From NCBI GenBank assembly GCA_964581105.1, contig CAZOMB010000001.1, positions 79,730 to 143,729 of the forward strand: a stretch of 64,000 nt of DNA, in the 5' to 3' direction. The stretch comes from Candidatus Micrarchaeota archaeon (GTDB taxonomy: Archaea; Micrarchaeota; Micrarchaeia; Anstonellales; Anstonellaceae). Made by a program: the position numbers and the translations under genes. Positions 21,029-40,438 of this stretch are shown piece by piece; the stretch's first letter is position 1, and each line of letters opens with the position of its first letter. A model generated the notes under the pieces. The model worked only from the letters and a program-made list of their open reading frames with translations. It did not search any database and was not told where the DNA came from.

Positions 21029-21161
21029 GTGGACTGAGGGGGATTTTCAGTCCTTTTTCCAGTTTTTGGTGAAGCTTTTTGCGCCAAAGGCGGAAAAAGG
21101 TTCTTTGAACCCCCGGCCTCGTCGTTGCGAACGACGCGCTCTACCGCTGAGCTATCAGCCC
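21029..21161 (-). tRNA. tRNA-Ala (anticodon CGC) with a ~60-nt intron in the T-loop
   Basis: Minus strand: GGGCUGA-UA-GCUC-AGCGGUA-GAGC-G-CGUCG-UUCGCAA-CGACG-AGGCC-GGGGG-UUCA[intron]AAU-CCCCC-UCAGUCC-A. The G3:U70 pair is the Ala identity element. The intron GAACCUUUUUCCGCCUUUGGCGCAAAAAGCUUCACCAAAAACUGGAAAAAGGACUGAA shares its core with four other tRNA introns in the window. Confidence 0.7.
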
Positions 21162-21224
21162 GTGAATTTGAAATTTGCTTGAAGAGTTTAAAAAGCACTT
21201 CCTCTCTAATAATATCGTGTTCAC

Positions 21225-21869
21225 ATGAAAGTCGCTGTTTTGTTTTCAGGGGGCAAGGACTCTGTTTTTGCTGCGTTTTGCTGCCTTTTTTCTGGCTGGG
21301 AGCCAATTCTTCTTACTATTGAGCCTGAAAAGCACTCAACTATGTTCCATCATCCTAATGTAAAATGGTGCAAAAACCAGGCAAAAGCCATGAAACTTCC
21401 AATAGTCAGCATAAAGGCTGATGGAAAAGGGGAAGAAAAAGAGCTTCTTGCAATGAAAAATGCCCTCAAGAAACTGAAAGTACAGGGAGTTGTGTCAGGG
21501 GCAATTGAAAGTGAGTACCAAAAGCAGAGGATTGGCAAAGTGGCGCATGAGCTTGGCATAACAAGCTTTTGCCCTGTCTGGAGGACTGGCAAAGCTTTGC
21601 TTGAAGAGCAGTGCAAATACTTTGAAACTTATTTGGTTTCTGTTGCTGCACAAGGGCTTGGCAAAGGGATGCTTACTAAGAGGTTTGATGCTGACTTTGT
21701 TGAGAAGCTTGGGAAACTAAAGCCTCAGGTCGCAAAAAACCTTGAAGGGGGGGAAGGCGAGACATTTGTTGCAAATGCCCCATTCTTCAAAAAAAGGCTG
21801 AAAATAAAAAAATGGAAAACCTCGTTTGACGGCTCTCAGGGGGCTGCAGAAATTTCCAAATTAACCTGA
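21225..21869 (+). CDS. PP-loop ATP pyrophosphatase (MJ0570/diphthine-ammonia-ligase-like, COG2102 family)
   Basis: N-terminal PP-loop VAVLFSGGKDS; C-terminal EGGEGETFVANAPFFKKRLKI resembles the MJ0570-family motif; 214 aa. Confidence 0.55.
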   Translation: MKVAVLFSGGKDSVFAAFCCLFSGWEPILLTIEPEKHSTMFHHPNVKWCKNQAKAMKLPIVSIKADGKGEEKELLAMKNALKKLKVQGVVSGAIESEYQKQRIGKVAHELGITSFCPVWRTGKALLEEQCKYFETYLVSVAAQGLGKGMLTKRFDADFVEKLGKLKPQVAKNLEGGEGETFVANAPFFKKRLKIKKWKTSFDGSQGAAEISKLT

Positions 21870-22517
21870 TTTTCCTGCTATTGACTCAAGCTTGTCTATT
21901 ATCCCATTAAGCTCCTGGCCATATGCTGCTCTTACGCTTATTGATGAGGAAAATATTGCCTCTACTGGGAGCTCCTTTTTCAAATGAATTGTATTGTCGC
22001 CAAATGCTGTTTCGCTTGATATTGGTATTGTTGCCTTTATCGGCACGTTTTCATCAAGGAAAAAGGAAACAGGCTGGCCAGTGCTGCTTATGCCGACAAC
22101 CTGTGCGTCAACTGGTATTACAAAGTCTAAAGGCAAATCAAATGTTTTTGGGAAAAGGTCCTTTATTGGGTATTGCCTGTCAAGAACAATTGTTGTTTGC
22201 ACTGGGGCAGACATTGTTATATCCCTGTCCTGCAGGGCCTTGAGGTCTTCTGCTATGCCAAGAAGCTTTTCTTTTTGCGACTCTGAAAGCTGCTTGTCTG
22301 CAAAAAATGCCCCATAAAAGCTGGCAAGTGCAATGACAAGCGCAATTGCTGCCAAAAGAAGCGGAAGGTTGCTTTCTGCAGGAAACTGCATCCTTTGTTG
22401 TGGTTGTGGGCTTTTCTGCCCGCCTGCAGGCGGAGAATAAGAATAAGGCTTGCTCTCTGCTTTCCCTGTGTTGCTTGAAAATCTGCTTGGAAGGGTTGAA
22501 ACCATGAATACCACCAA
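21861..22517 (-). CDS. hypothetical membrane-anchored protein
   Basis: Pro/Gln/Ser-rich N-terminus, a single TM helix (LPLLLAAIALVIALASFYGAFF), then a coiled-coil-like segment. No known motif. Confidence 0.4.
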   Translation of the reverse strand: MVVFMVSTLPSRFSSNTGKAESKPYSYSPPAGGQKSPQPQQRMQFPAESNLPLLLAAIALVIALASFYGAFFADKQLSESQKEKLLGIAEDLKALQDRDITMSAPVQTTIVLDRQYPIKDLFPKTFDLPLDFVIPVDAQVVGISSTGQPVSFFLDENVPIKATIPISSETAFGDNTIHLKKELPVEAIFSSSISVRAAYGQELNGIIDKLESIAGKSG

Positions 22518-22576
22518 GCAGATTCCTCAGGGGAGGATTATAAATGTTAAGTGAGGATTTTTTGCGAGGGGTTTGT

Positions 22577-22855
22577 ATGCCAAAAATAGTTTTCAAAAGC
22601 GACGGAAAGGAAATAGAGGTTGAAAAAGGAACGCCGCTGGTTCAGGCTGCAGAGGATGCCGGCGCAAGCATAACATTTTCATGCAAGGCAGGTGTATGCG
22701 TTTCATGTATCATAAATGTAGTCAAAGGAATGGAAAACTTAGGGGAGAAAACCGAGAATGAAAAGGCCACTTTGGAAGGGTTTGGGGCAAAGCCAAACCA
22801 GAGGCTTGCCTGCCAGTGCACAGTGAACGGCGACGTGGAAATTGAGAATCCGTAA
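22577..22855 (+). CDS. [2Fe-2S] ferredoxin-like protein
   Basis: CKAGVCVSC (C-x4-C-x2-C) plus a distal ..ACQC.. cysteine, with a beta-grasp-like layout; the start MPKIVFKSDGKEIEV is inferred. Confidence 0.55.
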   Translation: MPKIVFKSDGKEIEVEKGTPLVQAAEDAGASITFSCKAGVCVSCIINVVKGMENLGEKTENEKATLEGFGAKPNQRLACQCTVNGDVEIENP

Positions 22856-22966
22856 TTTTTTGCTTTTGCTTTTCTGAACTGTTTTAAACTCTTCTTAGCC
22901 TAACTTCCACCATGCCGAGTTGGCAGTTATAGTGCTGAGGCACTGCCTGCCAACATCGTCAAAATT

Positions 22967-23050
22967 GCCGAGTTGGCAGAATCCGGTATTGCGCTAGACT
23001 TGAGATCTAGTGCCCTTCGGGGCTTAGGAGTTCGAATCTCCTACTCGGCG
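22967..23050 (+). tRNA. tRNA-Ser (anticodon UGA), intron-less, type II
   Basis: GCCGAGU-UG-GCAG..CCGGU..-CUAGA-CUUGAGA-UCUAG, long variable arm UGCCCUUCGGGGCU, T arm AGGAG-UUCGAAU-CUCCU, acceptor 3' ACUCGGC-G. A T-run follows. A 14-nt direct repeat of its 5' end (UGCCGAGUUGGCAG) lies 53 nt upstream, at 22913-22926. Confidence 0.75.
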
Positions 23051-23053
23051 TTT

Positions 23054-23812
23054 TTATTTGAAAGGCTTGCTTTTCTTCCAGAATTCCTCAAAATAGGCCA
23101 TAAAGCTATCTGCAACCTCCTGGCTAACTATCTCTATTGTTATTGGCTTTGAAGAAATTACGCAAATTGCTGCAGTGTCCTTGTAGCACATGTACCAGGT
23201 AGGGCTGTTCAGCTCTATTGGCATGTACCTGGCTTCATTTCCCTTGAAGCTGTTCCTGTTAACAAGCACTTTTCTCAAGGTTTTTGGATGGAAAAGCATC
23301 TTGCTTTTTATGCCTGCCTTTATTCTCCTTAAATGGTCGCGCTGCCAGTATGCATGGTGCGCCTCTGGCTGGCCATAATGAATCCCAAAGTAAACATAGG
23401 TTTCCCCCCTTTTCAGCTTCTGGTATGTGTGCTCATGGGCAGTTATCATGCCTTTCATGCCCTCATAGATTGTTACTTTGCTCCTTTCCCCTAAATTCTG
23501 CAATGCTGCAAATGAAGGCATCTGCTTTTCAAGCTCTTTGTGGCACAACACCATTTCCTGTTGCTTCTTGCCAATATAATCAAGAAGCTGGTTTGGGGCA
23601 GAAGCCTGGTAATATTTTATCTTTCTCTTTATTATGTGAGAAACAAGCCCTTTTTCTGTAAGGCGTGAAAGTATCTGGTATATTATTGAGCGGGAAACGC
23701 CTGCCTTTTGGGCTGCCTTGCCTGCTGATGAAAGGCCTGCCTCAAGCAAAGCAAGATATACTTTTGATTCGCCGCCTGTAAGCCCTGCTTTTTTGAGAAG
23801 ATCTTCCCTCAT
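23054..23812 (-). CDS. TrmB-family transcriptional regulator
   Basis: N-terminal winged HTH LTGGESKVYLALLEAGLSSAGKAAQKAGVSRSIIYQILSRLTEKGLV is typical of TrmB; 252 aa with a C-terminal sensor-like domain. Confidence 0.7.
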   Translation of the reverse strand: MREDLLKKAGLTGGESKVYLALLEAGLSSAGKAAQKAGVSRSIIYQILSRLTEKGLVSHIIKRKIKYYQASAPNQLLDYIGKKQQEMVLCHKELEKQMPSFAALQNLGERSKVTIYEGMKGMITAHEHTYQKLKRGETYVYFGIHYGQPEAHHAYWQRDHLRRIKAGIKSKMLFHPKTLRKVLVNRNSFKGNEARYMPIELNSPTWYMCYKDTAAICVISSKPITIEIVSQEVADSFMAYFEEFWKKSKPFK

Positions 23813-23925
23813 GAAAGTGGTTTGTCTTTAGACCTATTTAATGCTTTGCATAATGTGCACCAGTGGTGGTGTGCTATTATATAAATATAAGGCAGGTGAA
23901 ATTAAGTGTTAGGAGAAGGATTTAT

Positions 23926-24714
23926 ATGGATACAACAGCAGAGAAAACCGCTGTGCTTGCAGCCCTTGAAAGAGCATGGGCAGGCACTTGCAGGGTTGTG
24001 CTCATGGGAGAGGTTGGGCCATTGATGGAATTTGAGCCTTACTTAACTAGGAGGAAGGAGAAGTGCAGGCTTGAAAAGTCATTAATATCTGGAAAGCGGG
24101 TTGCAGTGATTGGCACTTACCCAAAAGGAAGCAGATTCATATCTGACAAAGAGGCTAAACAATACCTGGAAAAAACCAAGGGCATGAAGCTGGACATAAA
24201 TTCAGTAAAAGACATTGACTCTGCTATTGGAGCATTCTCAGAAATTGCAGCATATGCAGGAGATGTAGTGCTTGGAAGGTCATACGGGGTTTTGGAATCA
24301 ACAAAAGTTGTTGAGTCAAGCTATGTGTTTAGCTCATCTGATGCGATTTACAGCAAGTTCATAGCATTCACGCAAATAGCCAAATACTCTGAAAATGTTT
24401 TTGGATGCATAAGCGCTGGAAAAAACTCCCGCTTTGCAATAGCCTGCGCAGAGTCTTATGAGTCTGCACGAACATTTGAGTGCTTTTATGTGTACCATGC
24501 TTCAGACTGCGTTTACAGTGCAAACGTTGAAAACTGCCAGGACTGCATTTTCAGCTTTAACTTAAGGGGAAAGAGGAGGTGCATTGGCAACCTTGAGCTT
24601 GCCCCTGACAAATACAGGCAGTTAAAGGAAAAGCTGCTCTCAGAGGCAAGGCAAATGCTGTCGGAAAAGAAGAGCCTGCCATCAATATATGACATTGTGA
24701 GGGGAAAAACATGA
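23926..24714 (+). CDS. Cys-rich family paralog C, N-terminal module (split gene, part 1)
   Basis: Aligns along its length with the N-terminal halves of paralogs A and B (ERAWAGTCRVVLMGEVGPLMEFEPYL, INSVKDIDSAI, YAGDVVLGRS, CQDCIFSFNLRGKRRCIGNLELAPDKYRQLKEKL). It ends in the inter-module linker with a TGA that overlaps the next ATG (ATGA). Confidence 0.6.
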   Translation: MDTTAEKTAVLAALERAWAGTCRVVLMGEVGPLMEFEPYLTRRKEKCRLEKSLISGKRVAVIGTYPKGSRFISDKEAKQYLEKTKGMKLDINSVKDIDSAIGAFSEIAAYAGDVVLGRSYGVLESTKVVESSYVFSSSDAIYSKFIAFTQIAKYSENVFGCISAGKNSRFAIACAESYESARTFECFYVYHASDCVYSANVENCQDCIFSFNLRGKRRCIGNLELAPDKYRQLKEKLLSEARQMLSEKKSLPSIYDIVRGKT

Positions 24715-25478
24715 GGGAAATAGAAAAGAACTTTGAAACTGTGGCTTCAGTCATACTGGGAAAGCCAGTTGGCCAGCTTCAGGACTATGAAGAGTGGCTG
24801 CTTTCCTGTTCTCCAGAGGCAAGGATAGTTGAAAAAAAGTCAGTTGATAGTGGAAAAAGCGTATACTCATGCTCTGCCCCTTTCTTTTTGGACCTTGGTG
24901 ACAGGGTGGTAAGGGTTGATGAAGCCCTGAAAAGAGGGCAAATGAAGCTTGGCGAAAAGGATGTCAATTCACTTTCCATTTCCAATGCTCCAAAGCTCCT
25001 TTCAGAAATAAGCATAACAACCCCTGAGATAGTTTACGGGGAGAACTTTGGAACTGAAGAATGCTCTGCATATGGCCCGACTCAGCAATGCTTTAGGACA
25101 ACTACATGCTGGTTTTGCAAGCACATAGCATACAGCTACTGGACAAGGACCAGCAACAACTGTTTTGGCTGCTCGCTTGTGACAGACTGTTCATTTTGCA
25201 TAAAGTGCTACAACTCAACAAAGCTTTTGCGCTGCTTAGAGGTAGATACTAGCAACAGCTGTGCAGACTGCCTGTTTTGCCATAACTGCGAAAATCTTTC
25301 TAACTGCATGTTCTGCTTTAATGTGAAAAATTTGAGGTATGCTGTTGGAAATCAGGTGGTTGGGAAAGAGGAATACCTTAGGATAAGGGGCATCTTGTGC
25401 AGCAATATACTTGAAAGCCTTGAGAAAAAGAAAAAGTTTGACCTTAGCATCTACAACATTGGATGCAGGAAGAATTAG
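24711..25478 (+). CDS. Cys-rich family paralog C, C-terminal module (split gene, part 2)
   Basis: Aligns with the C-terminal halves of paralogs A and B (FETVASVILGKPVGQLQDYEEWLL; CADCLFCHNCENLSNCMFCFNVKNLRYAVGNQVVGKEEY; ..LSIYNIGC). Confidence 0.6.
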   Translation: MREIEKNFETVASVILGKPVGQLQDYEEWLLSCSPEARIVEKKSVDSGKSVYSCSAPFFLDLGDRVVRVDEALKRGQMKLGEKDVNSLSISNAPKLLSEISITTPEIVYGENFGTEECSAYGPTQQCFRTTTCWFCKHIAYSYWTRTSNNCFGCSLVTDCSFCIKCYNSTKLLRCLEVDTSNSCADCLFCHNCENLSNCMFCFNVKNLRYAVGNQVVGKEEYLRIRGILCSNILESLEKKKKFDLSIYNIGCRKN

Positions 25479-25479
25479 C

Positions 25480-25785
25480 TTATTCAAGAGAGATTTTCAC
25501 CTGTACATTGTCAGGCACGCGCACTCTCATTATCTGCCTTAGGGTTCTTTCATCCCCAGCAACGTCAATAATGCGCTTGTGGACCCTCATCTGCCAGTGC
25601 TCATAAGTGTCTGAGCCGTCTCCGCACGGGGTCCTTCTGGTTGTGATTTCAAGCTTTTTGGTGGGAAGCGGAACTGGGCCTTTTATTTCAACTCCTGTCA
25701 TTCTTGCAATTTCAACTATTTGCTTGCATACTTCCTCAAGCTCCTCAGGCGACTTGCCAATCAGCTTGATTCTTGCTTTTCCCAT
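25480..25785 (-). CDS. rps10: 30S ribosomal protein S10 (uS10)
   Basis: MGKARIKLIGKSPEELEEVCKQIVEIARMTGVEIKGPVPLPTKKLEITTRRTPCGDGSDTYEHWQMRVHKRIIDV matches the archaeal uS10. Lies immediately downstream of tuf. Confidence 0.9.
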   Translation of the reverse strand: MGKARIKLIGKSPEELEEVCKQIVEIARMTGVEIKGPVPLPTKKLEITTRRTPCGDGSDTYEHWQMRVHKRIIDVAGDERTLRQIMRVRVPDNVQVKISLE

Positions 25786-25899
25786 GAAAATTTCCCCTGG
25801 AAATTTTCAGACATGCCCAAGGGCATGCTGATCAATCCACCAATCGCTGTTCCAATCCTTTTGACCGGACACAACCAAAAAATCCATAAAATAAAAAAT

Positions 25900-27168: not shown

Positions 27169-27358
27169 TTACATGCACCTCCAAATTTGCATAAACATTA
27201 CTTTGACCAAAACTTGACTCAACGTCAGTATTTAAGCCGAAGCAGGCTATATATTAGGGGTTGATTTTATAAACGTTGCGTAGGCGTGACAGAAGAGGGC
27301 TCATTTCTTTTTCTTCAGAGTGGAACTCGCTTCGCTCGCTCCACTTCAGAGAAAATCC

Positions 27359-28027: not shown

Positions 28028-28157
28028 AGAAAGGTATGCCCCTGTAGCTCATCGGTAGAGCGGCTGCCTTGTAAGCAGCAGGTAGTGGGTTCAATGGACC
28101 TTTTTCGGGATGCCTAAAAAGCTCCACCAAAAAGGTCTGAAAATCCCATCGGGGGCT
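28028..28157 (+). tRNA. tRNA-Thr (anticodon UGU) with a ~47-nt T-loop intron
   Basis: GCCCCUG-UA-GCUC-AUCGGUA-GAGC-G-GCUGC-CUUGUAA-GCAGC-AGGUA-GUGGG-UUCA[AUGGACCUUUUUCGGGAUGCCUAAAAAGCUCCACCAAAAAGGUCUGAA]AAU-CCCAU-CGGGGGC-U, then a T-run. The intron termini (GGACCUUUUU / AAAAAGGUCU) are complementary. Confidence 0.7.
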
Positions 28158-28179
28158 TTTTTTCCCTAGTGAAGACCTT

Positions 28180-31304: not shown

Positions 31305-31464
31305 TGCGGAGAGGAGGATTTTTAGGCGAGTGTTTTTTTGGTGAAGCTTTTTAGGCATCCCAAAAAAGGTTCTCGGAACCCCCGTAGTCACTAGGACACA
31401 AGGTCCTAAGCCTTGCGCATTTGACCAGATTGCAGCACCACAAGGGCGACTCTGCCATCTCCGC
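31305..31464 (-). tRNA. tRNA-Leu (anticodon UAG) with two introns: ~20 nt in the D-loop and ~52 nt in the T-loop
   Basis: GCGGAGA-UG-GCA-GAG[UCGCCCUUGUGGUGCUGCAA]UCUGGUCAAA-UGC-G-CAAGG-CUUAGGA-CCUUG-UGUCCUAGUGACUAC-GGGGG-UUC(C)[GAGAACCUUUUUUGGGAUGCCUAAAAAGCUUCACCAAAAAAACACUCGCCUA]AAU-CCUCC-UCUCCGC-A. After removing the 20-nt insert, the D-loop has the same length as the D-loop of tRNA-Leu(GAG) in this window. Confidence 0.6.
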
Positions 31465-34494: not shown

Positions 34495-34580
34495 GTTTTC
34501 ACCTTTTGGATTCCCGCATGCCCTTGTTGATGGCAACTCTCGGAACAATCCTATTACAATAAAATGGGACCATCGAGATT

Positions 34581-34803: not shown

Positions 34804-34839
34804 CTATGTTCAGCAATGAAAGCTTTTTAAGAGAAATGC

Positions 34840-35772
34840 CTAAGCTGCCCTTTTGAAAGTGTTTAAGGGAACAGACTTGCGCGAGGCTTTTTTCTGCAAA
34901 TCTGAAACTTTTGTGTGCTCTTTCTGCAGCATCTCAAGCAGCTTCAGCTTTTCCTTGTCTTGCAGCTGCTGCATCCCGATTCCGCGGGAAACACAGTTTG
35001 CGTATTTTTTTATCATTGCCTGCACTCGCGGAATTTCACCTGCCACTACTGCATAGCTTTTGGTCTGGTCAACCACTGTGAAGGAGATTATCCTGCCTGA
35101 TGGGTCAATAATGAGGAGCGGAAGTTTTCTTGTGTACATCTTGTTGCTCCCCTTTGCCCTGACAACTGAACTTTTCGAGTAAGCCAAGAGCCTTTTCATT
35201 AGCTCAGGAGAATAGAACGCATCAAAATCATATTTCAAGGAGTCCATGCTCTGCACCTTGACAGTGCTGCCAGAGATTTGTATTTCATCTAAGCCAGAGC
35301 TTTCCATTATTTTTCTCTCAACATGGCGGGCACTGTCTTTTCCCCCAAGTATCTTGCTCAGCTCAGATATCGCAGGTTCTGAGCCTGAATTGGTCAGTAT
35401 TTGGTAATTGTTCTTGAATATTTTGCCGTCAGGCTGAAGGACAAGTGAAACCTTGACGCTGCTGCCATGCTCTTTATTGAATCTTTTCAGGTCTTCTGAA
35501 ACCTCTTCATAGGGCACCGGGTTCTGCTTCACATAGTAGCTCGGAATGTCACCGCTTTCAACCCTGCCTTTAAGTTCACCTACTTTCTTCTTAAGCTCCT
35601 GCTTATCCTCAGGGGTGGCATAGCTTTCTTCTGTTGACTCTGTTTTCCCTCTTGTTTTGAATTCGCTCTCAACTTCCTTGTTTGTTTGGTCTCTGTTGAA
35701 AAAAATCGAGTAAATACCTCCGAAGAAAACGGACACAGCAACTACTATAAGCGCATATGGCTTCCATTTCAT
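34840..35772 (-). CDS. hypothetical membrane-anchored protein (N-terminal TM, extracytoplasmic body)
   Basis: Single N-terminal TM helix (YALIVVAVSVFFGGIYSIFF) then a 280-aa soluble domain; no known motif. It occupies the position where rpoK/eno lie in many archaea. Confidence 0.4.
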   Translation of the reverse strand: MKWKPYALIVVAVSVFFGGIYSIFFNRDQTNKEVESEFKTRGKTESTEESYATPEDKQELKKKVGELKGRVESGDIPSYYVKQNPVPYEEVSEDLKRFNKEHGSSVKVSLVLQPDGKIFKNNYQILTNSGSEPAISELSKILGGKDSARHVERKIMESSGLDEIQISGSTVKVQSMDSLKYDFDAFYSPELMKRLLAYSKSSVVRAKGSNKMYTRKLPLLIIDPSGRIISFTVVDQTKSYAVVAGEIPRVQAMIKKYANCVSRGIGMQQLQDKEKLKLLEMLQKEHTKVSDLQKKASRKSVPLNTFKRAA

Positions 35773-35905
35773 AGGGCTGTTTTTATCTTTTTCAGGACTG
35801 CGTGATTTGTAATCCTTCCCATAAGGACCATCTTGATACTTGGAGTTGCCAGACGTATAACCACTTCTTATCTATTAGCAGTAAGAGGAAATAAAAAGCA
35901 GTTGG

Positions 35906-36103
35906 CTATTTTTTCCTGTATTTCGAGATTTTGTCCATTACTTCCACGTGTGAGAGAAACATTCTCCTGCAGCAGTAGCGGTCAATTCCCATTTTTTCAA
36001 GTATTTGCGCAGGGTTTTTTCCTGCCTTTACCTGCATTGCATATTCCTCATAAAGATTGCCTATCACTGCGCCGCATGTAAAGCACCTGATTGGAAAATA
36101 CAT
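35906..36103 (-). CDS. rpoN: DNA-directed RNA polymerase subunit N (RpoN/Rpb10)
   Basis: MYFPIRCFTCGAVIGNLYEEY...DRYCCRRMFLSHVE carries the CxxC...CC zinc motif; 65 aa; sits in the conserved rps9-rpoN position. Confidence 0.85.
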   Translation of the reverse strand: MYFPIRCFTCGAVIGNLYEEYAMQVKAGKNPAQILEKMGIDRYCCRRMFLSHVEVMDKISKYRKK

Positions 36104-36157
36104 AAATGCACCTCTTCTCTAGTTTTCCGTTAACGCTTTTAGGCAACCCAAAAAGGG

Positions 36158-36595
36158 TTATCTATAAGATTTCTGGAACCTTGCGCGTGCTTTTGGCCCT
36201 TTGTATTTTTTGGGCTCAACACGCCTTGAGTCTTCTGCAATCATGAACCTGTCATATTCAAGTATCTTTTTCTTTAAATTGTCATCCTTTGAAAAGCCAA
36301 CCAATGCCCTGGCAATTGCAACCCTTGCTGCCTGTGCCTGGCCCATCTGGCCGCCGCCAATTACATTGACTGAAATATTTACCTGTGATGCTATTTGCGG
36401 GGCCAAATGAAGGGGCTCTGATACAATGTCCCTTACATATTTGTTGTCAATTGCCCCTAATCTCACGCTGTTTATCCTTATTATCCCCTTTCCTTTTGAA
36501 ACTGAGGCCCTTGCAATGCTCTGTTTTCTTTTTCCCCTGTAAATATTGGGGGAAATGAGCTTCTTTTTCTTTGCTTTTCCCTTCTTTTTTGCCAT
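36158..36595 (-). CDS. rps9: 30S ribosomal protein S9 (uS9)
   Basis: C-terminus ..GPKARARFQKSYR and GGGQMGQAQAARVAIARALV. The start MAKKKGKAKKKK is inferred at 36595; the longer ORF-track N-terminus overlaps rpl13. Confidence 0.85.
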   Translation of the reverse strand: MAKKKGKAKKKKLISPNIYRGKRKQSIARASVSKGKGIIRINSVRLGAIDNKYVRDIVSEPLHLAPQIASQVNISVNVIGGGQMGQAQAARVAIARALVGFSKDDNLKKKILEYDRFMIAEDSRRVEPKKYKGPKARARFQKSYR

Positions 36596-36603
36596 AAATG
36601 CAC

Positions 36604-37020
36604 CTATTCTGCCTTGTGGCCAAGCTGGTTGCAAAGCTCTTTTATTGTGAACATGCCATGCTTTGCCTCTGAGCTTGCCTCTGGAATTTTCTTTGGCTTT
36701 CCCTCTTTTGCCTGCCCTGCTGATACCCTGAGCCTTTTGTATGCGTCGCGACCCCTCTGGCTTTTGTATGGGAGCATGCCGCGAACCATTTTCCTGAGGA
36801 AAAGGTGCGGGAGCCTTGGCCATTTTGGCGAGTGCTCAGGGTTTTGCTTATCTGTTTGCAGCCTCCTTTTAAGGTACTTTTGCTTTGCAGCAGTGAGCTT
36901 TCCGAGCATAACTGCCTTTTCTGCATTGACTATTTCAACTTTTTGGCCTGCAAGCAGGAGCTTTGCAACCCTTGCGCTAAGCCTTCCTGCAACAGCCCTG
37001 TCTGCGTCAATAAGAACCAT
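36604..37020 (-). CDS. rpl13: 50S ribosomal protein L13 (uL13)
   Basis: MVLIDADRAVAGRLSARVAKLLLAGQKVEIVNAEKAVMLGK.. matches the archaeal uL13 N-terminus; in conserved gene order. Confidence 0.85.
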   Translation of the reverse strand: MVLIDADRAVAGRLSARVAKLLLAGQKVEIVNAEKAVMLGKLTAAKQKYLKRRLQTDKQNPEHSPKWPRLPHLFLRKMVRGMLPYKSQRGRDAYKRLRVSAGQAKEGKPKKIPEASSEAKHGMFTIKELCNQLGHKAE

Positions 37021-37029
37021 AGTTCCACC

Positions 37030-37383
37030 TTATTTTATTATCACGAAATCCTTGCCTGTCGGGCTCTTTTTTGCAGCCTCAACAATTGAAATCGCCTTCC
37101 CGCCTGCAGACTCAACCATCTTTTTTGCTGATTCTGAAAACGAAAGAGCTGCAATTGTAATCTTTTCCTTAAGCAAGCCTGCCCCAAGGACCTTGTCAGG
37201 CACAACAATGGTTGAGCCGGCTTTTGCATATTTGGCAATCCTGCTCAGGTTTACCCCTGGCTTTTTCCTGGCAGATGAACAAACAAGCTCAATTACCCTT
37301 TTCCAGAAGGGCGCTTTTCTTGCCTGGGCTGGCATACTTGCAAGGACTTTGATTGCTTTTGGAGAATATTTTTTCTTTGCCAT
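37030..37383 (-). CDS. rpl18e: 50S ribosomal protein L18e (eL18)
   Basis: ..VVPDKVLGAGLLKEKITIAALSFSESAKKMVESAGGKAISI.. matches eL18; in the conserved position between rpoD and rpl13. Confidence 0.8.
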   Translation of the reverse strand: MAKKKYSPKAIKVLASMPAQARKAPFWKRVIELVCSSARKKPGVNLSRIAKYAKAGSTIVVPDKVLGAGLLKEKITIAALSFSESAKKMVESAGGKAISIVEAAKKSPTGKDFVIIK

Positions 37384-37405
37384 TTTCTACACCTTGTTAG
37401 GAAAA

Positions 37406-37538
37406 TGTGGGGGAAGGGATTTTTAGGCAACGATTTTTGGTGGAGCTTTTTAGGCACCCAAAAAAGGTCCGAACCCTCGAAGCCCTAAGGCACCAACCCC
37501 TCAAGCTGGCGCATTTGACCTAGCTCTGCCACCCCCAC
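37406..37538 (-). tRNA. tRNA-Leu (anticodon GAG) with a ~48-nt T-loop intron
   Basis: GUGGGGG-UG-GCA-GAGCUAGGUCAAA-UGC-G-CCAGC-UUGAGGG-GUUGG-UGCCUUAGGGCUUC-GAGGG-UUCG[GACCUUUUUUGGGUGCCUAAAAAGCUCCACCAAAAAUCGUUGCCUAAA]AAU-CCCUU-CCCCCAC-A. Confidence 0.65.
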
Positions 37539-37570
37539 GCATCCGCATGAATTATTCATCAACCCCATAT

Positions 37571-38155
37571 TTATTTCTTGATTTCTGACAGCTGCTTTTC
37601 AAGCTCATTGCACCTTTCAATCACTATGTCTGCTGCGTGAGAAAGGAACTTTTTTGGCTCAAGCTGCATGAATGACTCGACTTTGAACTTGAATTCGTTT
37701 GGCTTGAGAATTTCATAGGAAATAAGGCCTGGCTGGAATTTTGCATGCTTTCTTCCAATCCCCATTCTTGCCTTTGCCTCAAGCCTGACATTCTGGCCTT
37801 CAAGAAGCTTGAGAAGTGGAATGTCTGCAAGGGCAGACTTTATCTTTGAGTCATTGCTCTTGAGCTGCTTTGAGTATATTGTTCCTGGGCCTTGCGCATC
37901 AAGAGTGAATGCTATCTCATCTGATTGCCTTGCTGAGTCTGAAGCCAAAGGAATCTGGCCAAGCCTGTGTGCCAGGTACTCGTCAAACATTGAGGAGCTG
38001 TTCTCATAAAAGGTCACATTGTCAATTGCAAATACAGGGACCTTGCCTATGCCATACCTTCTTATCAAATTGGCAAACGCAGCAGGGGCCCCTTTGAGCC
38101 TGAACTCGAGCCTGTTTTTCTTTTCAAGAGACATTTCAATATCCATAAAAACCAC
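37571..38155 (-). CDS. rpoD: DNA-directed RNA polymerase subunit D (RpoD/Rpb3)
   Basis: ..RLEFRLKGAPAAFANLIRRYGIGKVPVFAIDNVTFYENSS.. has the RpoD N-terminal signature. In the conserved rps11-rpoD-rpl18e order. The true start may be the internal MSLEKK. Confidence 0.8.
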   Translation of the reverse strand: MVFMDIEMSLEKKNRLEFRLKGAPAAFANLIRRYGIGKVPVFAIDNVTFYENSSSMFDEYLAHRLGQIPLASDSARQSDEIAFTLDAQGPGTIYSKQLKSNDSKIKSALADIPLLKLLEGQNVRLEAKARMGIGRKHAKFQPGLISYEILKPNEFKFKVESFMQLEPKKFLSHAADIVIERCNELEKQLSEIKK

Positions 38156-38167
38156 CTGGCAGGTTCT

Positions 38168-38887
38168 TCAGACCCGCCTGCCTCTCCTTCCGCCTGCCTT
38201 TTTGGTTGTGTCAGTCGGAATTGGCGTAACATCCTCAATTTTTCCTATCCTAAGCCCAAGCCTTGCAAGAGAGCGGACAACTGCCTGTGCTCCTGAGCCA
38301 GGGCTCTTTGCCCCATTGCCCCCAGGTGCGCGTATCCTTATGTGCAATCCGGTTATTCCCCTGTTCTTTGCCTCGTTTGCTACTTTTGCTGCTGCTTGCA
38401 TTGCTGCGTATGGCTTTCCTTCTTCCCTGTCAGCCTTTACAATCATTCCACCTGATGCTTTTGCAATTGTTTCTGCCCCTGACATGTCTGTTACTGTGAT
38501 TATTGTGTCATTTTTTGATGAGAACACATGGCACACTGCCCACTTGTATTCGCGCTTAAATCTCCTGGGTGGAACTGCGGTGGTTGCAGCTGGCTTTGTT
38601 GCTGCTGGTTTTTGTTCCACTTTCTGTGCTGGAGGTTTTTGCCCTGGTTTTGCTGCTGGTTTTTTCTCATCTGGCTTTTGCTCCTTTTTTTGCTCTGGTT
38701 TTGGTTCTGGCTTTGTTGCCACTGGCTTTGGTAATGGTTTTTTCTCTGACTTTTGCTCTGGCTTAGAGTGTTCCTTTTTTTCAGCTGGCTTTTGGTGCTC
38801 CTTTTTTGGCTCTGGCTTTGGCTCATGCTTTGGCTTTTTCTCATCTTTTTTCTTTTCAATTGGTTTTTCTGCCACCATAATCACCAT
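38168..38887 (-). CDS. rps11: 30S ribosomal protein S11 (uS11) with ~100-aa Lys/Pro/Glu-rich N-terminal extension
   Basis: C-terminal core ..[63 protein letters not shown].. The N-terminus reads [29 protein letters not shown]... Confidence 0.85.
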
Positions 38888-39486
38888 TAGCCTGCTGCTT
38901 GTGGAGCCTTTGCATCAGGAACAACAGCCTCTTCCTTTTTCTTCTCTTGCTTTTTTGGCTCCTCTTTGCTTTCTGCTTCTGGAGCAGCAGGCTTTTCTTC
39001 ATGAACTGAAATGTCAATTGGTTTTCTGTGTGAAATTTCCTTCTCCTCATCAACCTTGACCAAATAGCTTGGCACTGTCACTTTCTTGCCTTTTACTGAT
39101 ATGAAACCATGGGTAATGAGCTGCCTTGCCTGCCTTGGGGTCCTTGCAAGCCCTTTTTTCATTACAATTGTCTGCAGCCTTCTTTCAAGGAAGCTTTCAA
39201 CACTCAGTGAAAGAATGTCATCAACCTTTGCATCTGCAGAGATTATGCCCAGCCTTGCAAGCCTTGCCATAAGCGGCTTTGCCATTTCAATTCCCTCTTT
39301 GCCAAGGGAAAGGTATTTCATTGCGCCCCTTCTTGCCTTTTTGAGATCCTGCAAAGTCACCCAAATTTCTTTTGTGTTCTTCAATCCATATGCCACTGCA
39401 AGCTTTCTTTCGGTCTTTATCCTGTCAGCATCCCAGATTTTCCGGGGTGATTCGTACTTGTTCTTGAGTTTTCTCGGGTCTCCCAT
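38887..39486 (-). CDS. rps4: 30S ribosomal protein S4 (uS4) with acidic/basic C-terminal extension
   Basis: [42 protein letters not shown].. matches the archaeal uS4 N-terminus. An S4 domain follows, then the tail ..[24 protein letters not shown].. Confidence 0.85.
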
Positions 39487-39491
39487 TCAAA

Positions 39492-40211
39492 TCACTTTTT
39501 TGGCTCTGGCTTTTTTTCAGCTGGCTTTGGGGCAGGCGCTGCTGCTTTTTTCTCTGGAGCTGGCTTTTCACCTGAAGCTGCTGCAGGCGCTGCTTCTGGG
39601 GCTGCCCTTCCTTTGCCGCCTTTTTCCTCTGCCTTGATTTCCTTTGCCTTTTCAAGCACTGCCTTTCTCAGAACGCCGACAGTCATTCCTGTCCTTCCTG
39701 TGCTCCTTGTCCTCTGGCCGCGAACCTTTTGGCCATACTGGTGCCTGTAGCCCCTCCATGTGTAAGCATCCTTTTCATGGTCAATGTCCTGCCTTACAGA
39801 AAAAACCAGGTCTGCGCCAATAAAGTGCTTGCTCTGGCCGGTCATAATGTCATTCTGCCTGTTGAACATCCATGAAGGAATCCCGTATTTGTCAGGGTTT
39901 TGCAAAATTCCCTCAAGCTTTGCTATCTGCTCCTCAGAAAGCTCTCCAACCATTGTCTTTTCATCTATTCCAAGCTGCTCGCAGGCAATCTTGGAAATCA
40001 CTCCGCCAAGGTTTATCCCTATTCCTTTTACAGAAGTGACTGCCCTTTTCAATGGGAATGAGCCCCTTAAGTCCCTTCCAGCAAGCCTTACAATGCCTTT
40101 TACTTCCTTTCCAGAGGCAGACACTATTGGCTTTGCTGCCTGTGGCTGCCTTTTTCCAGGGCCATGGCCTTTTTTGGTTTTTCCTTTTCCGAATTTTGGT
40201 TTTCCAGGCAT
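39492..40211 (-). CDS. rps13: 30S ribosomal protein S13 (uS13) with Lys/Pro/Ala-rich extensions
   Basis: ..IVRLAGRDLRGSFPLKRAVTSVKGIGINLGGVISKIACEQLGID.. is the uS13 core. The C-terminal tail reads ..EKPAPEKKAAAPAPKPAEKKPEPKK. Confidence 0.8.
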   Translation of the reverse strand: MPGKPKFGKGKTKKGHGPGKRQPQAAKPIVSASGKEVKGIVRLAGRDLRGSFPLKRAVTSVKGIGINLGGVISKIACEQLGIDEKTMVGELSEEQIAKLEGILQNPDKYGIPSWMFNRQNDIMTGQSKHFIGADLVFSVRQDIDHEKDAYTWRGYRHQYGQKVRGQRTRSTGRTGMTVGVLRKAVLEKAKEIKAEEKGGKGRAAPEAAPAAASGEKPAPEKKAAAPAPKPAEKKPEPKK

Positions 40212-40236
40212 GTTGAATCAACTTTTAATTGGGAAG

Positions 40237-40438
40237 CGCCGGGAATGGGATTTTTGGGCAAGAACCTTTTTCAGTTTTTGGTGAAGCTTTTTAGGCACCC
40301 CAAAAAAGGTTCTCCGAACCCATACGGCCTTGCGACCACATGCTTGCCGATATTTCACCTTTTCCGTCCACGCTTTTGCGCCGAAGGCGGAAAAGGGTGG
40401 TTCCAGGCATGCGCACTACCAGGTTATGCGACCCCGGC
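40237..40438 (-). tRNA. tRNA-Ser (anticodon GGA), type II, with two introns: ~57 nt at the canonical 37/38 position and ~52 nt in the T-loop
   Basis: GCCGGGG-UC-GCAU-AACCUGGUA-GUGC-G-CAUGC-CUGGAA[CCACCCUUUUCCGCCUUCGGCGCAAAAGCGUGGACGGAAAAGGUGAAAUAUCGGCA]A-GCAUG-UGGUCGCAAGGCCGU-AUGGG-UUCG[GAGAACCUUUUUUGGGGUGCCUAAAAAGCUUCACCAAAAACUGAAAAAGGUUCUUGCCCAAA]AAU-CCCAU-UCCCGGC-G. Confidence 0.55.

Follow-up and report, generated by a model that had tools for sequence, protein, structure and literature searches.

Five of the six tRNA genes detectable in a 64,000-nt stretch of DNA (the window) from a tiny Micrarchaeota-like archaeon carry an insertion in the T-loop, as an initial annotation of this DNA had stated. 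We put the probability at roughly 0.6 that these insertions are spliced-out introns with bulge-helix-bulge (BHB) junctions, each containing one copy of a dispersed, self-folding module that is not specific to introns. The new point is the shared core as a portable module; both T-loop sites and the heavy intron load of Micrarchaeota are already known. We found no published description of the module and no Rfam family that matches it.

Interrupted tRNA genes and their predicted splice junctions

The five interrupted genes, with the outcome of splicing in silico (ARAGORN), are:

21030..21161, minus strand: tRNA-Ala(CGC) gene, one intron; 73-nt cloverleaf with G3:U70
28038..28157, plus strand: tRNA-Thr(UGU) gene, one intron; 72-nt tRNA
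31305..31464, minus strand: tRNA-Leu(UAG) gene, two introns; tRNA-Leu(tag) with both removed
37406..37538, minus strand: tRNA-Leu(GAG) gene, one intron; tRNA-Leu(gag)
40236..40438, minus strand: tRNA-Ser(GGA) gene, two introns; tRNA-Ser(gga) with both removed

With cuts placed in silico by the BHB rule, all five products are clean cloverleaf tRNAs. The unspliced tRNA-Thr(UGU) gene gives only a partial Rfam tRNA match, and uninterrupted duplicates of the five isoacceptors were not found within the window. Since splicing in silico restores canonical tRNAs, we read the insertions as spliced introns:

21044..21103, minus strand: Ala T-loop intron, 60 nt, position 59/60, relaxed hBH; H = UUCA/UGAA; bulges AAG, AAU
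28096..28143, plus strand: Thr T-loop intron, 48 nt, position 59/60, strict hBHBh'; H = UUCA/UGAA; bulges AUG, AAU
31430..31449, minus strand: Leu-UAG D-loop intron without the module, 20 nt, about position 15/16; H = GCAG/CUGC; bulges AGU, AAU; h' = CGCC/GGUG
31322..31375, minus strand: Leu-UAG T-loop intron, 54 nt, position 56/57, HBh'; H = GGGU/GCCU; bulges UCC, AAA
37423..37470, minus strand: Leu-GAG T-loop intron, 48 nt, position 56/57, HBh'; H = GGGU/GCCU; bulges UCG, AAA; spliced T-loop UUCAAAU
40254..40315, minus strand: Ser-GGA T-loop intron, 62 nt, position 56/57, HBh'; H = GGGU/GCCC; bulges UCG, AAA; h' = 12 bp
40345..40400, minus strand: Ser-GGA anticodon-loop intron, 56 nt, canonical position 37/38; H = CUGG/UCGG; bulges AAC, CAA; outer helix 7 bp

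The T-loop insertions had been assigned lengths of 47-60 nt and a single site at about 58/59. The lengths are corrected to 60, 48, 54, 48 and 62 nt (Ala, Thr, Leu-UAG, Leu-GAG and Ser-GGA, respectively), and the BHB rule yields two sites instead of one. Ala and Thr have their T-loop introns at 59/60, whereas the other three (Leu-UAG, Leu-GAG and Ser-GGA) have theirs at 56/57, for which 57/58 would be an admissible alternative. The Leu-UAG D-loop intron and the Ser-GGA 37/38 intron had been overlooked, as had a free-standing type-2 copy of the module (below).

The initial annotation had taken the insertions for non-canonical archaeal introns, and the predicted junctions support this reading. 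Folding of the junctions, which it had proposed as a check, gave a BHB, hBH or HBh' geometry for every intron; among the five T-loop junctions one is strict and four are relaxed (hBH or HBh'). In Ala the outer helix is the 5-bp T-stem; in Thr, h has 5 bp and h' has 9 bp (GACCUUUUU/AAAAAGGUC), the pairing that the minimum-free-energy (MFE) fold uses; and the MFE fold of the Ser T-loop intron shows 4 bp, a 3-nt bulge and then a helix. The MFE folds of Thr, Ala and Ser are all the splice-competent pairing, and the self-complementary termini described earlier are found in these three, where GGACCUUUUU pairs with AAAAAGGUCU. For the Leu-UAG T-loop junction, we assigned the pairing by eye, taking Leu-GAG and Ser-GGA as models. 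The spliced T-loop is UUCAAAU in Ala and, after removal of 31322..31375, in Leu-UAG, and the spliced D-loop of Leu-UAG equals that of Leu-GAG. The 3' parts of the introns are host-specific, with CUGAAAA in class I tRNAs and UUGCC(U/C)AA in class II.

Both 56/57 and 59/60 are known tRNA intron positions (PMC4090602), and the 59/60 introns of the Micrarchaeota ARMAN-2 are cleaved by its own epsilon2 endonuclease, which has broad specificity (PMC3239211). The window shows synteny and 70% amino-acid identity with Micrarchaeota MAG loci and thus belongs to the same phylum-level group as ARMAN-2. According to the passages of the ARMAN-2 papers covered here (PMC3239211, PMC3488258), that archaeon, like the window, has 59/60 T-loop introns, both strict and relaxed (hBH) motifs, genes with several introns, and most of its tRNA genes disrupted. 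The published examples in these passages are short (13-25 nt), whereas the window introns have 48-62 nt around a conserved module; a shared sequence module is not reported in the same passages, and the central helix of the window 56/57 introns uses the 5' strand of the T-stem, unlike the ARMAN-2 examples given there.

A conserved module within the introns

The shared core that had been described in the insertions is real: CCTAAAAAGCTYCACCAAAAA occurs five times (at most 3 mismatches) against 0.01 expected in the window. A covariance-model search of the window returned exactly five matches (42-48 bits, E <= 5e-12; next best 12 bits), one per T-loop intron. The core forms a self-folding module of ~31-45 nt. 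In type 1, it consists of a foot helix G-R-A-(C·C)-C, a U4-6 run, a free apical hairpin, an A4-6 run, G-(C)-U-Y-C and the tail ACC-AAAA; the foot pairs are G:C, R:Y, A:U, a C·C mismatch and C:G, followed by a U4-6:A4-6 helix. The copies in the window are:

21062..21104, minus strand: type-1 module in the Ala intron, cap CCGCCUUUGGCGC; covariance model 45.9 bits, E = 2.3e-13
28095..28134, plus strand: type-1 module in the Thr intron, GG..CC foot variant; 43.1 bits
31334..31373, minus strand: type-1 module in the Leu-UAG T-loop intron; 47.6 bits
37433..37471, minus strand: type-1 module in the Leu-GAG intron; 42.0 bits
40274..40313, minus strand: type-1 module in the Ser T-loop intron; 47.0 bits
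40360..40400, minus strand: type-2 module in the Ser 37/38 intron, diverged; CCAC-C-C-U4...A4-G-C-GUGG-ACGG-AAAA
36124..36160, minus strand: free-standing type-2 module in an operon spacer; UAACCC-U5-GGGUUGCCU-A4-GCGUUA-ACGG-AAA

As previously noticed, tRNA-Ala has a segment replaced, its cap standing where the others have GGGNUGCCU; the cap CCGCCUUCGGCGC of the Ser 37/38 module matches that of Ala. The introns carry the module at their 5' end, with its first G 0-3 nt from the 5' splice site. The first three bases of the free-standing copy are the TAA stop of ORF 36158-36823, and an rpoN-like ORF (35906-36103) starts ~20 nt downstream of it. The U5-6 run within essential tRNA genes resembles an archaeal terminator.

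Our data demonstrate that the foot helix is supported by covariation. The related loci contain 137 covariance-model matches. In the foot helix, 98.2% of cells are paired (93.3% in shuffles) and 49 cells carry double changes (7.2 expected), with substitutions from G:C to A:U, U:A and C:G and from A:U to G:C and C:G. The GA..UC and GG..CC alternatives show perfect linkage in 92 of 102 copies, and the 13 distinct copies of a type-2 regex family contain six different compensatory foot variants. Moreover, the linker tracks the foot, ACC going with 5 bp and ACGG with 6 bp, and the tail mirrors the 3' arm in 21 instances (shuffle mean 7, maximum 14).

Distribution of the module

A scan of species-representative genomes revealed at least 102 module loci; among the matches listed, 91 are labelled archaeal and 11 bacterial, and they include at least 13 named archaeal lineages (with DPANN, Bathyarchaeia, Methanomethylicia and Halobacteria) and three bacterial ones. 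At least six further copies lie on a giant-virus (NCLDV) contig. The module occurs in D-, anticodon- and T-loop introns of tRNAs, in 23S and 16S rRNA (introns and 16S helix tips), at the tips of helices P3 and P12 of RNase P RNA, and 1-3 nt past the 3' end of eight intact tRNAs. Tandem and nested copies are also found within a single intron (L148/L151).

At its 5' edge the module marks where the RNA unit upstream of it ends. In 10 of 10 tRNA-adjacent cases it is the 5' side of the module that faces the tRNA, stop codons sit at the 5' edge 13 times and at the 3' edge five times, and the 5' splice site falls exactly at the first G in 12 of 27 resolved intron cases. Sense copies outnumber antisense ones in tRNA genes (26 vs 8) and account for all three in rRNA; antisense copies are found in tRNA introns and in P3 of RNase P RNA. 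This sense bias may reflect survivorship, but selection or RNA-level action would explain it equally well.

In two related Micrarchaeota, the T-loop of the tRNA-Leu(GAG) orthologues is likewise interrupted at roughly the same point, by an intron of different content. The intron site thus appears older than the module, since these orthologues keep the site but not the module, and the sequences suggest that the unit that spreads is the module rather than the whole intron.

Discussion

The analysis shows the anatomy of the introns and the module, its covariation and distribution, and the return of tRNAs on splicing in silico. For these pre-tRNAs, the splicing, cut sites and ligation that we infer are as follows. 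The tRNA splicing endonuclease would cut each 3-nt bulge between its second and third base, and the exons would then be joined by RtcB-type ligation into tRNAs with a normal 7-nt T-loop. The intron-internal helix beside the 5' splice site comes from the module, which pairs with its own 3' arm or, in Thr, Ala and Ser, with a second A-run and then GGU further downstream; the 3' end of the intron, which is host-specific, contributes the 3' bulge and a central helix of 4 bp. For the enzymes involved, and for the module's mobility and any function it has, we likewise rely on inference. It may have been copied as a dispersed unit, probably by a DNA-level route, into harmless or possibly useful places: existing tRNA and rRNA introns, the helix tips of 16S rRNA and RNase P RNA, and the start of the sequence that follows tRNA 3' ends and stop codons.

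Short imperfect hairpins in many copies are familiar from REP/BIME, MITEs and Rickettsia palindromic elements, which lie at gene ends and in operon spacers, form tandem copies and are tolerated inside RNA genes, are species- or genus-specific and need a cognate transposase. The module resembles them as a many-copy imperfect hairpin with such locations and tandem copies. However, its flanks are constant across domains, its shortest form is ~31 nt, no target-site duplication was seen at the modules, and no transposase family was found among the 93 ORFs within 3 kb of them, so that no known means of mobility is at hand.

As a tentative alternative, the module may not be a passenger but may serve as a functional RNA signal and, in the manner of a portable end-marker, direct or stabilise the end of an RNA where its own 5' edge lies. 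It could act as a tRNA-acceptor-like minihelix (G1:C72, A73, CCA) cut on its 5' side by RNase P, like downstream tRNAs or mascRNA-type elements, as a helix that brings in the splicing endonuclease or positions it, or as a compact hairpin-plus-tail fold that blocks exonucleases. That the 5' edge coincides with stop codons, with 5' splice sites and, at 1-3 nt, with the 3' ends of tRNAs argues for such a role, as do the strong conservation of primary sequence across domains, the sense orientation, the scaling of the linker with the foot, the tail that mirrors the 3' arm, and the copies in an operon spacer and at giant-virus gene ends, like stabiliser or processing hairpins. tRNA-like minihelices, as in mascRNA-type 3'-end formation, are substrates of RNase P and the CCA enzyme; type 1 reads hairpin-A-CCA and thus resembles them in its G:C-first helix followed by unpaired A-C-C-A, directly downstream of the RNA to be ended. 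However, the type-2 tail is ACGG rather than ACCA, the module has no T-loop, the cleavage is putative, and helix length is not fixed: because the stem varies from 10 to ~20 bp, the module holds no 12-bp measure. Additionally, the antisense copies in tRNA introns and P3 do not fit an end-marker, RNase P ends (3'-OH, 5'-P) would be unsuited to RtcB ligation if that enzyme cut intron 5' ends, and orthologous introns work without the module.

The initial annotation had concluded from the related introns that introns spread between tRNA genes. Transposition of one ancestral T-loop intron as a whole within the lineage is, in our view, rather doubtful, although 35-40 nt are common to the five introns and the 3' ends are shared within each class (Ala and Thr; Leu, Leu and Ser). 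A precedent exists in Thermoproteales, for which the part of the literature covered here proposes DNA-level spread by an unknown mechanism (Fujishima 2010, summarised in PMC4090602); in that account, similarity extends over whole introns within one order. In the window introns, by contrast, only the 5' module is common and the 3' parts are host-specific, and this common part is a pan-archaeal module that crosses phyla and domains, recurs in many non-intron contexts in other archaeal lineages, bacteria and the NCLDV contig, and stands outside introns in the window itself (36124-36160). Two insertion sites, and the unrelated content of the relatives' Leu(GAG) introns at the site, also argue against the copying of whole introns.

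A further reading, which we consider unlikely, is that the module is a bidirectional transcription terminator at the DNA level and that its intron copies are accidental. Oligo-T is the archaeal termination signal, and the module, which lies directly past stop codons and tRNA 3' ends, carries one T run (T4-6) on its top strand and two (T4-5) on its bottom strand. Under the Mimiviridae "hairpin rule", transcript 3' ends lie at hairpins (PMC4402537), and the NCLDV modules (L122/L123) are likewise palindromic hairpins right after genes. To our knowledge, hairpin-rule palindromes have no conserved flanking sequence, whereas the module has constant flanks (GAACC-UUUU and AAAA-GCUUCACC-AAAA) that the viral copies share with archaeal ones. 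A terminator would truncate five essential tRNAs and split the rps-rpoN operon; it also leaves unexplained the conservation of GCUYCACC, the C·C mismatch, the foot covariation and the modules in mid-gene in rRNA and RNase P RNA.

Quite unlikely, too, is an origin as a remnant or miniature of an IS200/IS605-TnpB (OMEGA, Cas12f, Fanzor) element, with the module as a transposase-recognised hairpin end or as part of a guide-RNA scaffold. The 5' region of the tracrRNA of Un1Cas12f1 (Cas14a1), from DPANN like the window, contains 19 contiguous bases, GAACC-GCUUCACCAAAAG, that equal the foot and tail of the module without the hairpin; with what we take to be an upstream GAG, the tract reads GAGAACC directly before GCUUCACCAAAAG. 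TnpB and Fanzor occur in archaea, bacteria and NCLDV, a host range that fits the module's, and Y1-transposase substrates and REP elements are imperfect hairpins resembling the module's, with its conserved mismatch. However, GCUUCAC in the Un1Cas12f1 sgRNA pairs with a downstream GUGAAG, whereas that of the module pairs with GAAC; the remaining tracrRNA scaffold is absent; no Cas12f, OrfB, TnpB or Y1 transposase was found among the 93 ORFs within 3 kb, nor were such transposase families found beside the bacterial copies; and the 11 viral-contig matches to the hairpin-less 17-mer are chance matches inside ORFs. That the disrupted genes are pseudogenes or the insertions assembly artefacts is most improbable: ARAGORN and Rfam do miss or only partly match the unspliced genes, but exons and identity elements (e.g. 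G3:U70 in Ala) are intact, cloverleaves are perfect, hairpins cov­ary, intact duplicates are missing from the window, and the region around the neighbouring EF-1alpha gene (~1 kb from tRNA-Thr) recurs in independent assemblies.

Taken together, we favour spliced introns that each carry one copy of a dispersed module. The primary sequence of this module is almost unchanged across Halobacteria, DPANN, bacteria and a giant virus, which speaks against a purely selfish element; such conservation points to a conserved partner or function of the module.

Predicted introns in the tRNA genes

Before intron removal, ARAGORN and Rfam returned only three tRNA-like signals in the window. tRNA-Ser(UGA) was intact (22966-23051), and the unspliced tRNA-Ala and tRNA-Thr genes gave partial matches only. 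Reading of the sequence revealed complete tRNA exons with a T-loop interruption at all five loci listed in the initial annotation, and the shared core described there was confirmed: CCTAAAAAGCTYCACCAAAAA occurs five times (at most 3 mismatches) against 0.01 expected from shuffles, and a covariance model from unrelated genomes matches exactly the same five sites with scores of 42-48 bits (E <= 5e-12), while the best match elsewhere in the 64 kb scores 12 bits. We refer to this core as the type-1 module, a hairpin with a foot helix, U/A runs, a free apex and a tail; type 2 is a diverged form.

Introns were placed with a scan for bulge-helix-bulge (BHB) motifs with a central helix (H) of 4 bp and two bulges of 3 nt, one per strand, each cut behind its second base. 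The T-loop geometry of tRNA-Leu(UAG) was assigned by eye, by analogy with tRNA-Leu(GAG) and tRNA-Ser(GGA). Strict motifs carry outer (h) and inner (h') helices (hBHBh'); hBH and HBh' are relaxed forms.

Introns of five tRNA genes in the window
21044-21103: tRNA-Ala, T-loop, 59/60, 60 nt; hBH, H and T-stem as in tRNA-Thr, inner side loose
28096-28143: tRNA-Thr, T-loop, 59/60, 48 nt; strict hBHBh', H UUCA/UGAA, bulges AUG/AAU
31322-31375: tRNA-Leu(UAG), T-loop, 56/57, 54 nt; HBh', H GGGU/GCCU
31430-31449, minus strand: tRNA-Leu(UAG), D-loop, about 15/16, 20 nt; perfect HBh', H GCAG/CUGC, bulges AGU/AAU
37423-37470: tRNA-Leu(GAG), T-loop, 56/57, 48 nt; HBh', H GGGU/GCCU
40254-40315: tRNA-Ser(GGA), T-loop, 56/57, 62 nt; HBh', H GGGU/GCCC, inner helix 12 bp
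40345-40400: tRNA-Ser(GGA), canonical 37/38, 56 nt; BHB

The expectation of BHB or relaxed geometry at the junctions held for all five T-loop insertions (strict in tRNA-Thr, hBH in tRNA-Ala, HBh' in the others). The single non-canonical site of the initial annotation has to be replaced by two, as the BHB rule places the introns of tRNA-Ala and tRNA-Thr at 59/60 and those of both tRNA-Leu genes and tRNA-Ser at 56/57. In tRNA-Thr, the outer helix is the T-stem (h of 5 bp) and the inner helix has 9 bp (GACCUUUUU/AAAAAGGUC). In the three class II tRNAs, GCC(U/C) near the intron 3' end pairs with G51-U54, with bulges UC/N and AA/A (cut at the slash); judged from the sequence, a cut at 57/58 would also give a legal T-loop, UUCGAAU, as an alternative to 56/57.

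The D-loop intron of tRNA-Leu(UAG), which lacks the module, and the 37/38 intron of tRNA-Ser(GGA) had been overlooked. With all seven introns cut out in silico, ARAGORN recognized five normal cloverleaf tRNAs, namely Ala(cgc), Thr(tgt), Leu(tag), Leu(gag) and Ser(gga). The spliced T-loops have 7 nt (UUCAAAU or UUCAAUU), and spliced tRNA-Ala has G3:U70. The splice-competent pairing is the minimum-free-energy fold of the Thr, Ala and Ser precursors. Taken together, the five T-loop insertions are, as modeled, BHB-type introns at two T-loop positions.

Archaeal introns have been documented at 56/57 as well as at 59/60 (PMC4090602). In the Micrarchaeota member ARMAN-2, 56% of the tRNA genes are disrupted and the epsilon2 endonuclease cuts a 59/60 hBH intron in vitro (PMC3239211). 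Taken alone, the T-loop introns are ordinary for Micrarchaeota.

Several features mark the organism as an archaeon. On direct reading, the tRNA genes are preceded by TATA-like boxes at a distance of about 25-30 nt and followed by oligo-T. The window also carries aEF-1alpha and SecY, downstream of which lies a probable cluster of ribosomal-protein genes, and its proteins show identity of up to 70% and synteny with the Micrarchaeota MAG loci L082 and L097. The EF-1alpha region beside tRNA-Thr is present in several independent metagenome assemblies. Elsewhere in the window, a 2031-aa ORF (42025-48120, minus strand) has no Pfam match and a 1081-aa protein (4816-8061, minus strand) combines LamG with CBM domains; the two presumably represent large surface proteins as common in DPANN.

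Intron site and module content in tRNA-Leu(GAG)

A syntenic block common to the window, L082 and L097 contains the tRNA-Leu(GAG) gene. In L082 (6445-6590, minus strand), the T-loop intron at about the same place contains a U7/A5 hairpin that is simpler and lacks GCUUCACC; a complete module lies 3 nt past the gene. In L097 (2590-2830, minus strand), the T-loop intron is unrelated and about 100 nt long, and the gene also has a D-loop intron. Because these orthologues hold different intron content, the T-loop intron site appears older than its present content; because their introns do without the module, the module is dispensable for the existence of a T-loop intron. The comparison argues for turnover of the content at this site by module insertion or replacement, so intron content at the conserved Leu(GAG) site would turn over quickly. 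The simple spread of whole introns between tRNA genes, as first proposed, is made less likely by these orthologues and by the window introns themselves, in which sharing is limited to the 5' module and the 3' parts are host-specific.

Structure of the module

In aligned copies, the type-1 foot helix consists of G:C, R:Y and A:U pairs, a C·C mismatch and a C:G pair. Above the foot stand a U4-6:A4-6 helix and a freely variable apex, which can be as small as a loop of 2-3 nt or as large as a GC-rich hairpin of 30 nt, and the module ends in an unpaired ACC-AAAA tail followed by a purine; GAACCUUUUCUUGCGAAGAAAAGCUUCACCAAAAGAAG is an example of a minimal module. Among 102 listed copies from other genomes, the second base before ACC (the first paired position) is G in 94, and the base directly before ACC is A in 85 and G in 11. 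This A/G is perfectly linked to U/C in GCU(U/C)C (81 GA..UC, 11 GG..CC). In a model-derived alignment of 123 distinct copies, 98.2% of foot cells pair versus 93.3% when shuffled, 49 cells show two-sided changes against 7.2 expected, and the pair types are GC 107/AU 4/UA 3/CG 1, AU 104/GC 10/CG 5 and UA 70/CG 22; these counts lean towards structure because the alignment was fitted to the model, whereas the raw GA..UC/GG..CC linkage is independent of it.

In type 2, the foot is longer by one C:G pair and the tail reads ACGG-AAAA. The 13 distinct copies of this type include six foot variants with compensatory changes (GAAC/GUUC, GCAC/GUGC, CAAC/GUUG, GGAC/GUCC, CCAC/GUGG and UAAC/GUUA), and all retain the C·C mismatch. 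The linker from foot to A-run lengthens with the foot (ACC at 5 bp, ACGG at 6 bp), and stem length ranges from 10 to about 20 bp. The window holds seven copies of the two types, including the following.

Type-2 copies in the window
40360-40400, minus strand: copy in the 37/38 intron of tRNA-Ser(GGA)
36124-36160, minus strand: free-standing copy between two genes, in an operon spacer

The first three bases of the free-standing copy are the TAA stop of the ORF at 36158-36823, and an rpoN-like 65-aa ORF begins about 20 nt downstream. Since the copy lies in the spacer before this ORF, its U5 run falls inside an apparent operon.

The cap, or apical part, of the Ala type-1 copy (CCGCCUUUGGCGC; 21062-21104, minus strand) is nearly identical to that of the Ser type-2 copy (CCGCCUUCGGCGC; 40360-40400, minus strand), and the cap GGGUUGCCU occurs both in T-loop type-1 copies and in the free-standing type-2 copy. 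That the two types have caps in common suggests that caps are exchanged or homogenized within the genome.

The tail after CACC mirrors the 3' arm, in the order of a parallel complement of the 5' arm (UUUUUCUUUC versus AAAAAGAAAG; UUUUCUCUU versus AAAAGAGAA). The mirror extends at least 2 positions past the U-run in 21 of 49 informative copies, a count inflated by shared ancestry within subfamilies, versus a mean of 7 and a maximum of 14 in 2000 shuffles. In the Thr, Ala and Ser introns, ACC-U5 pairs with an additional segment, A5-GGU(C), to form the BHB inner helix, and therefore the U-run has two or three alternative A-run partners. These pairings would fit a tail that folds back along the U:A helix as a triple strand, or a structure that switches between two states.

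Distribution across genomes

A scan of one genome per species with the pattern ACCTTTT-N(5-30)-AAAAGCTYCACCAAAA gave at least 102 loci, and the module is present in at least 13 named archaeal lineages among the matches listed.

Loci of the genome scan grouped by record title, among the matches listed
Micrarchaeota group: 29
Woesearchaeota: 18
Nanoarchaeota: 11
Aenigmatarchaeota: 4
Parvarchaeota: 2
Altiarchaeales: 1
Bathyarchaeia: 5
Methanomethylicia: 4
Thermoproteota: 1
Thermoplasmata: 2
Methanophagales: 1
Methanosarcinales: 1
Halobacteria (isolates of Halolamina and Halarchaeum): 4
Unclassified archaea: 8
Labeled bacterial: 11

In 706 kb of related loci the covariance model had 137 matches, and an additional 292 kb yielded 54. 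In metagenomes, 31 loci matched the subfamily to which the window's type-1 copies belong (cap GGGNUGCCU). Some bacterial or "coding" pattern matches without foot pairing (L015, L041, L046, L084, L117-120, L125 and L126), were rejected as chance; L041, L046 and L084, three of the 11 bacterial-labeled loci, are on this sequence criterion probably chance matches. L055 and L056, also labeled bacterial, look like misbinned archaeal contigs.

Six of the 11 bacterial-labeled loci carry a genuine repeated variant in three lineages: Novacetimonas (three copies in 8 kb), Oscillospiraceae/Ruminococcaceae and Tidjanibacter. This variant has a perfect GAAGC/GCUUC foot, with G:C instead of the C·C mismatch, and a conserved ACUUU after the tail; its copies sit between housekeeping genes. 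In Oscillospiraceae it is embedded in a longer repeat (about 70 nt), which also has a GGGG-UUUCA-CCCC hairpin.

The viral contig IMGVR_UViG_3300045825_000703 has at least six modules in 15 kb, at gene ends and in tandem. It encodes topoisomerase II, C2H2 zinc fingers and DUF5832, which identifies it as a giant virus (NCLDV) of eukaryotes. The viral copies have GC-rich caps and include two tandem pairs, one inside a 25-bp outer stem.

Bacterial and viral copies
L039 356-387, 4598-4629 and 6351-6382; L010, L057 and L076; L013 and L083: bacterial variant
L122 254-309, 10573-10628, 11086-11208 and 11855-11949; L123 835-888: viral copies

Genomic contexts and the 5' edge of the module

The module occurs in tRNA introns of the D-loop, anticodon loop and T-loop, in 23S rRNA (L040, L085) and in 16S rRNA (L056, as well as L049 and L157, where it sits at a helix tip). 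Within RNase P RNA, an antisense module forms a 29-nt insert in P3 of four Woese/Nanoarchaeota loci by Rfam alignment, and in Micrarchaeota-like contigs a sense module flanked by ACAGAAACGA and AGGAUGAAACGG replaces P12. A general antisense role towards RNase P RNA was rejected, as the alignment shows this P3 insertion in one clade.

Copies in RNase P RNA
L034 7909-7937, L071 1312-1341, L093 463-491 and L094: antisense
L127 8970-9009 and L147 1759-1798: sense

Next to intact tRNAs, the tRNA lay on the module's 5' side in 10 of 10 copies, at a gap of 1-3 nt. Eight of the ten were on the tRNA's strand, i.e., after the tRNA 3' end and often past an encoded CCA; these came from Bathyarchaeia, Methanomethylicia, Thermoproteota and Micrarchaeota. 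The stop codon of a co-oriented ORF overlapped or abutted the 5' edge in 13 cases versus 5 at the 3' edge, and at etfA of two Halolamina species the stop UGA or UAG provides the module's GA. Splice-site distances and orientation were taken from ARAGORN after blind or BHB excision at 100+ loci, a noisy method that yields oversized or spurious tRNAs. By this method, the 5' splice site lay exactly at the module's first G in 12 of 27 resolved introns and within 3 nt in 18, the rest being mostly false "introns" from tRNA-flank copies, and orientation relative to the host tRNA gene was sense in 26 and antisense in 8. In rRNA, 3 of 3 were sense. In the window, the splice site is at the first G itself (0 nt) in Ala, Thr and Leu-GAG and 3 nt from it in Leu-UAG and Ser.

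One T-loop intron (L148/L151) contains both tandem and nested copies, and arrays are present at L030 and L122. L030 (5400-5600, minus strand) contains at least three tandem repeats of a module plus 42-nt spacer, running into an assembly gap. L063 (3848-4080) has two tandem copies of the first ~26 nt of tRNA-Thr(GGU) upstream of the full gene, with a module after each, which looks like a module-associated partial duplication.

Discussion

The unexpected part of these results is that the intron core belongs to a very widely distributed, sequence-conserved hairpin module that has no Rfam entry. In Rfam 15, no family fits the module and only tRNA, rRNA and RNase P matches reach threshold; E-value scans of the Thr locus, one Woesearchaeota copy and one bacterial copy gave nothing above 19 bits. 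A full-text literature search, which included sequence words and covered the text of papers available without subscription, found no description of it.

We propose that the T-loop insertions are BHB introns and that the module is a dispersed unit tolerated in introns, helix tips and gene ends, with a probability of about 0.6 for this statement as a whole; the reason for the module's presence is its least certain part. By established archaeal tRNA splicing, an epsilon2-type broad-specificity endonuclease would cut both bulges, and RtcB would join the exons and circularize the intron. The inner helix flanking the 5' bulge would be the module foot or the ACC-U5/A5-GGU alternative, and H and the 3' bulge would come from the host-specific 3' end of the intron. 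Transposed introns of the Thermoproteales type show whole-intron, lineage-restricted similarity, whereas only the 5' module is common to the window introns, and it is spread over lineages. The module resembles MITE/REP-like elements in forming many dispersed short hairpin repeats. Transposase and TnpB were absent from the 25 commonest Pfam families among 93 ORFs (300-560 aa) within 3 kb, the commonest being housekeeping; Pfam showed no transposase or TnpB beside the bacterial copies, and inspection showed no target-site duplication or flanking direct repeat.

The strongest rival, which we hold to be possible yet clearly less probable, is that the module is a functional RNA signal that marks or stabilizes ends. 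The extreme sequence conservation, the position of its 5' edge and the sense bias speak for such a role, while the antisense copies, the type-2 tail and the orthologous introns that lack the module speak against it. A fuller version, also tentative, would see this domain-crossing structured module as a portable "end-of-unit" signal. Its C·C-mismatch hairpin carries an ACC-AAAA tail, which would fold back on the module's U:A helix or compete for it. The module would define or protect the RNA end just 5' of it (a tRNA 3' end, an mRNA 3' end or an intron 5' splice site) by means of a conserved partner, for example RNase P, the splicing endonuclease or some other universal factor. Its recruitment would have happened repeatedly, with tRNA and rRNA introns, RNase P RNA and giant-virus genes as recipients.

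Several specific identities were considered. The type-1 tail ACCA and the first-pair G (94 of 102 listed copies) may point to a tRNA acceptor minihelix; the type-2 tail, ACGG, weakens a CCA mimic, and "measuring" of a 12-bp minihelix was rejected because stem length is not fixed. A box C/D (K-turn) sRNA was rejected because box C is missing and the G-R before ACC covaries with Y-C as Watson-Crick pairs, which excludes sheared G·A pairs there. The same covariation indicates that ACC is paired (A:U, C·C, C:G), and thus a BHB inside the module with the two ACC triplets as bulges was also rejected. As for an mRNA intron, deletion of the module fused only chance frames; L050, for example, is intergenic.

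A transcription terminator is a weaker explanation, since it is hard to reconcile with copies in five essential tRNA genes, rRNA, RNase P RNA and an operon spacer. Derivation from TnpB is likewise a weak candidate. The sole literature match to the module's sequence words is the guide-RNA scaffold of the DPANN-derived nuclease Un1Cas12f1 (Cas14a1), which begins ACCGCUUCACCAAAAG and contains ACC followed by GCUUCACCAAAAG (10.1101/2022.10.20.513037). This scaffold corresponds to the module foot and tail minus the U/A hairpin, and the likeness is limited to 19 nt. Presumably, the natural tracrRNA has GAGAACC upstream. We regard the resemblance as a lead that may reflect homology or chance. Neither OrfB or Y1 families nor cas12f or tnpB were found near modules among the commonest Pfam families of the 93 flanking ORFs, and the hairpin-less 17-mer GAACCGCTTCACCAAAA gave 11 matches in viral contigs, all within ORFs and consistent with chance. 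Pseudogenes or an assembly artefact would poorly explain intact exons and covarying hairpins.

The module bears on the colonization of DPANN structural RNA genes by BHB introns and other insertions, and its covariance model is a practical flag for disrupted tRNA genes missed by ARAGORN and Rfam. In the culturable haloarchaea Halolamina and Halarchaeum, it lies right after stop codons, which makes the functional reading directly testable; therefore, the module merits follow-up. If the module is functional, archaea, some bacteria and a giant virus would share a new and very compact signal for RNA processing or stability. If mobile, it would provide a concrete handle on how archaeal BHB introns arise and move, and would bear on why the tRNA, rRNA and RNase P RNA genes of DPANN accumulate insertions.
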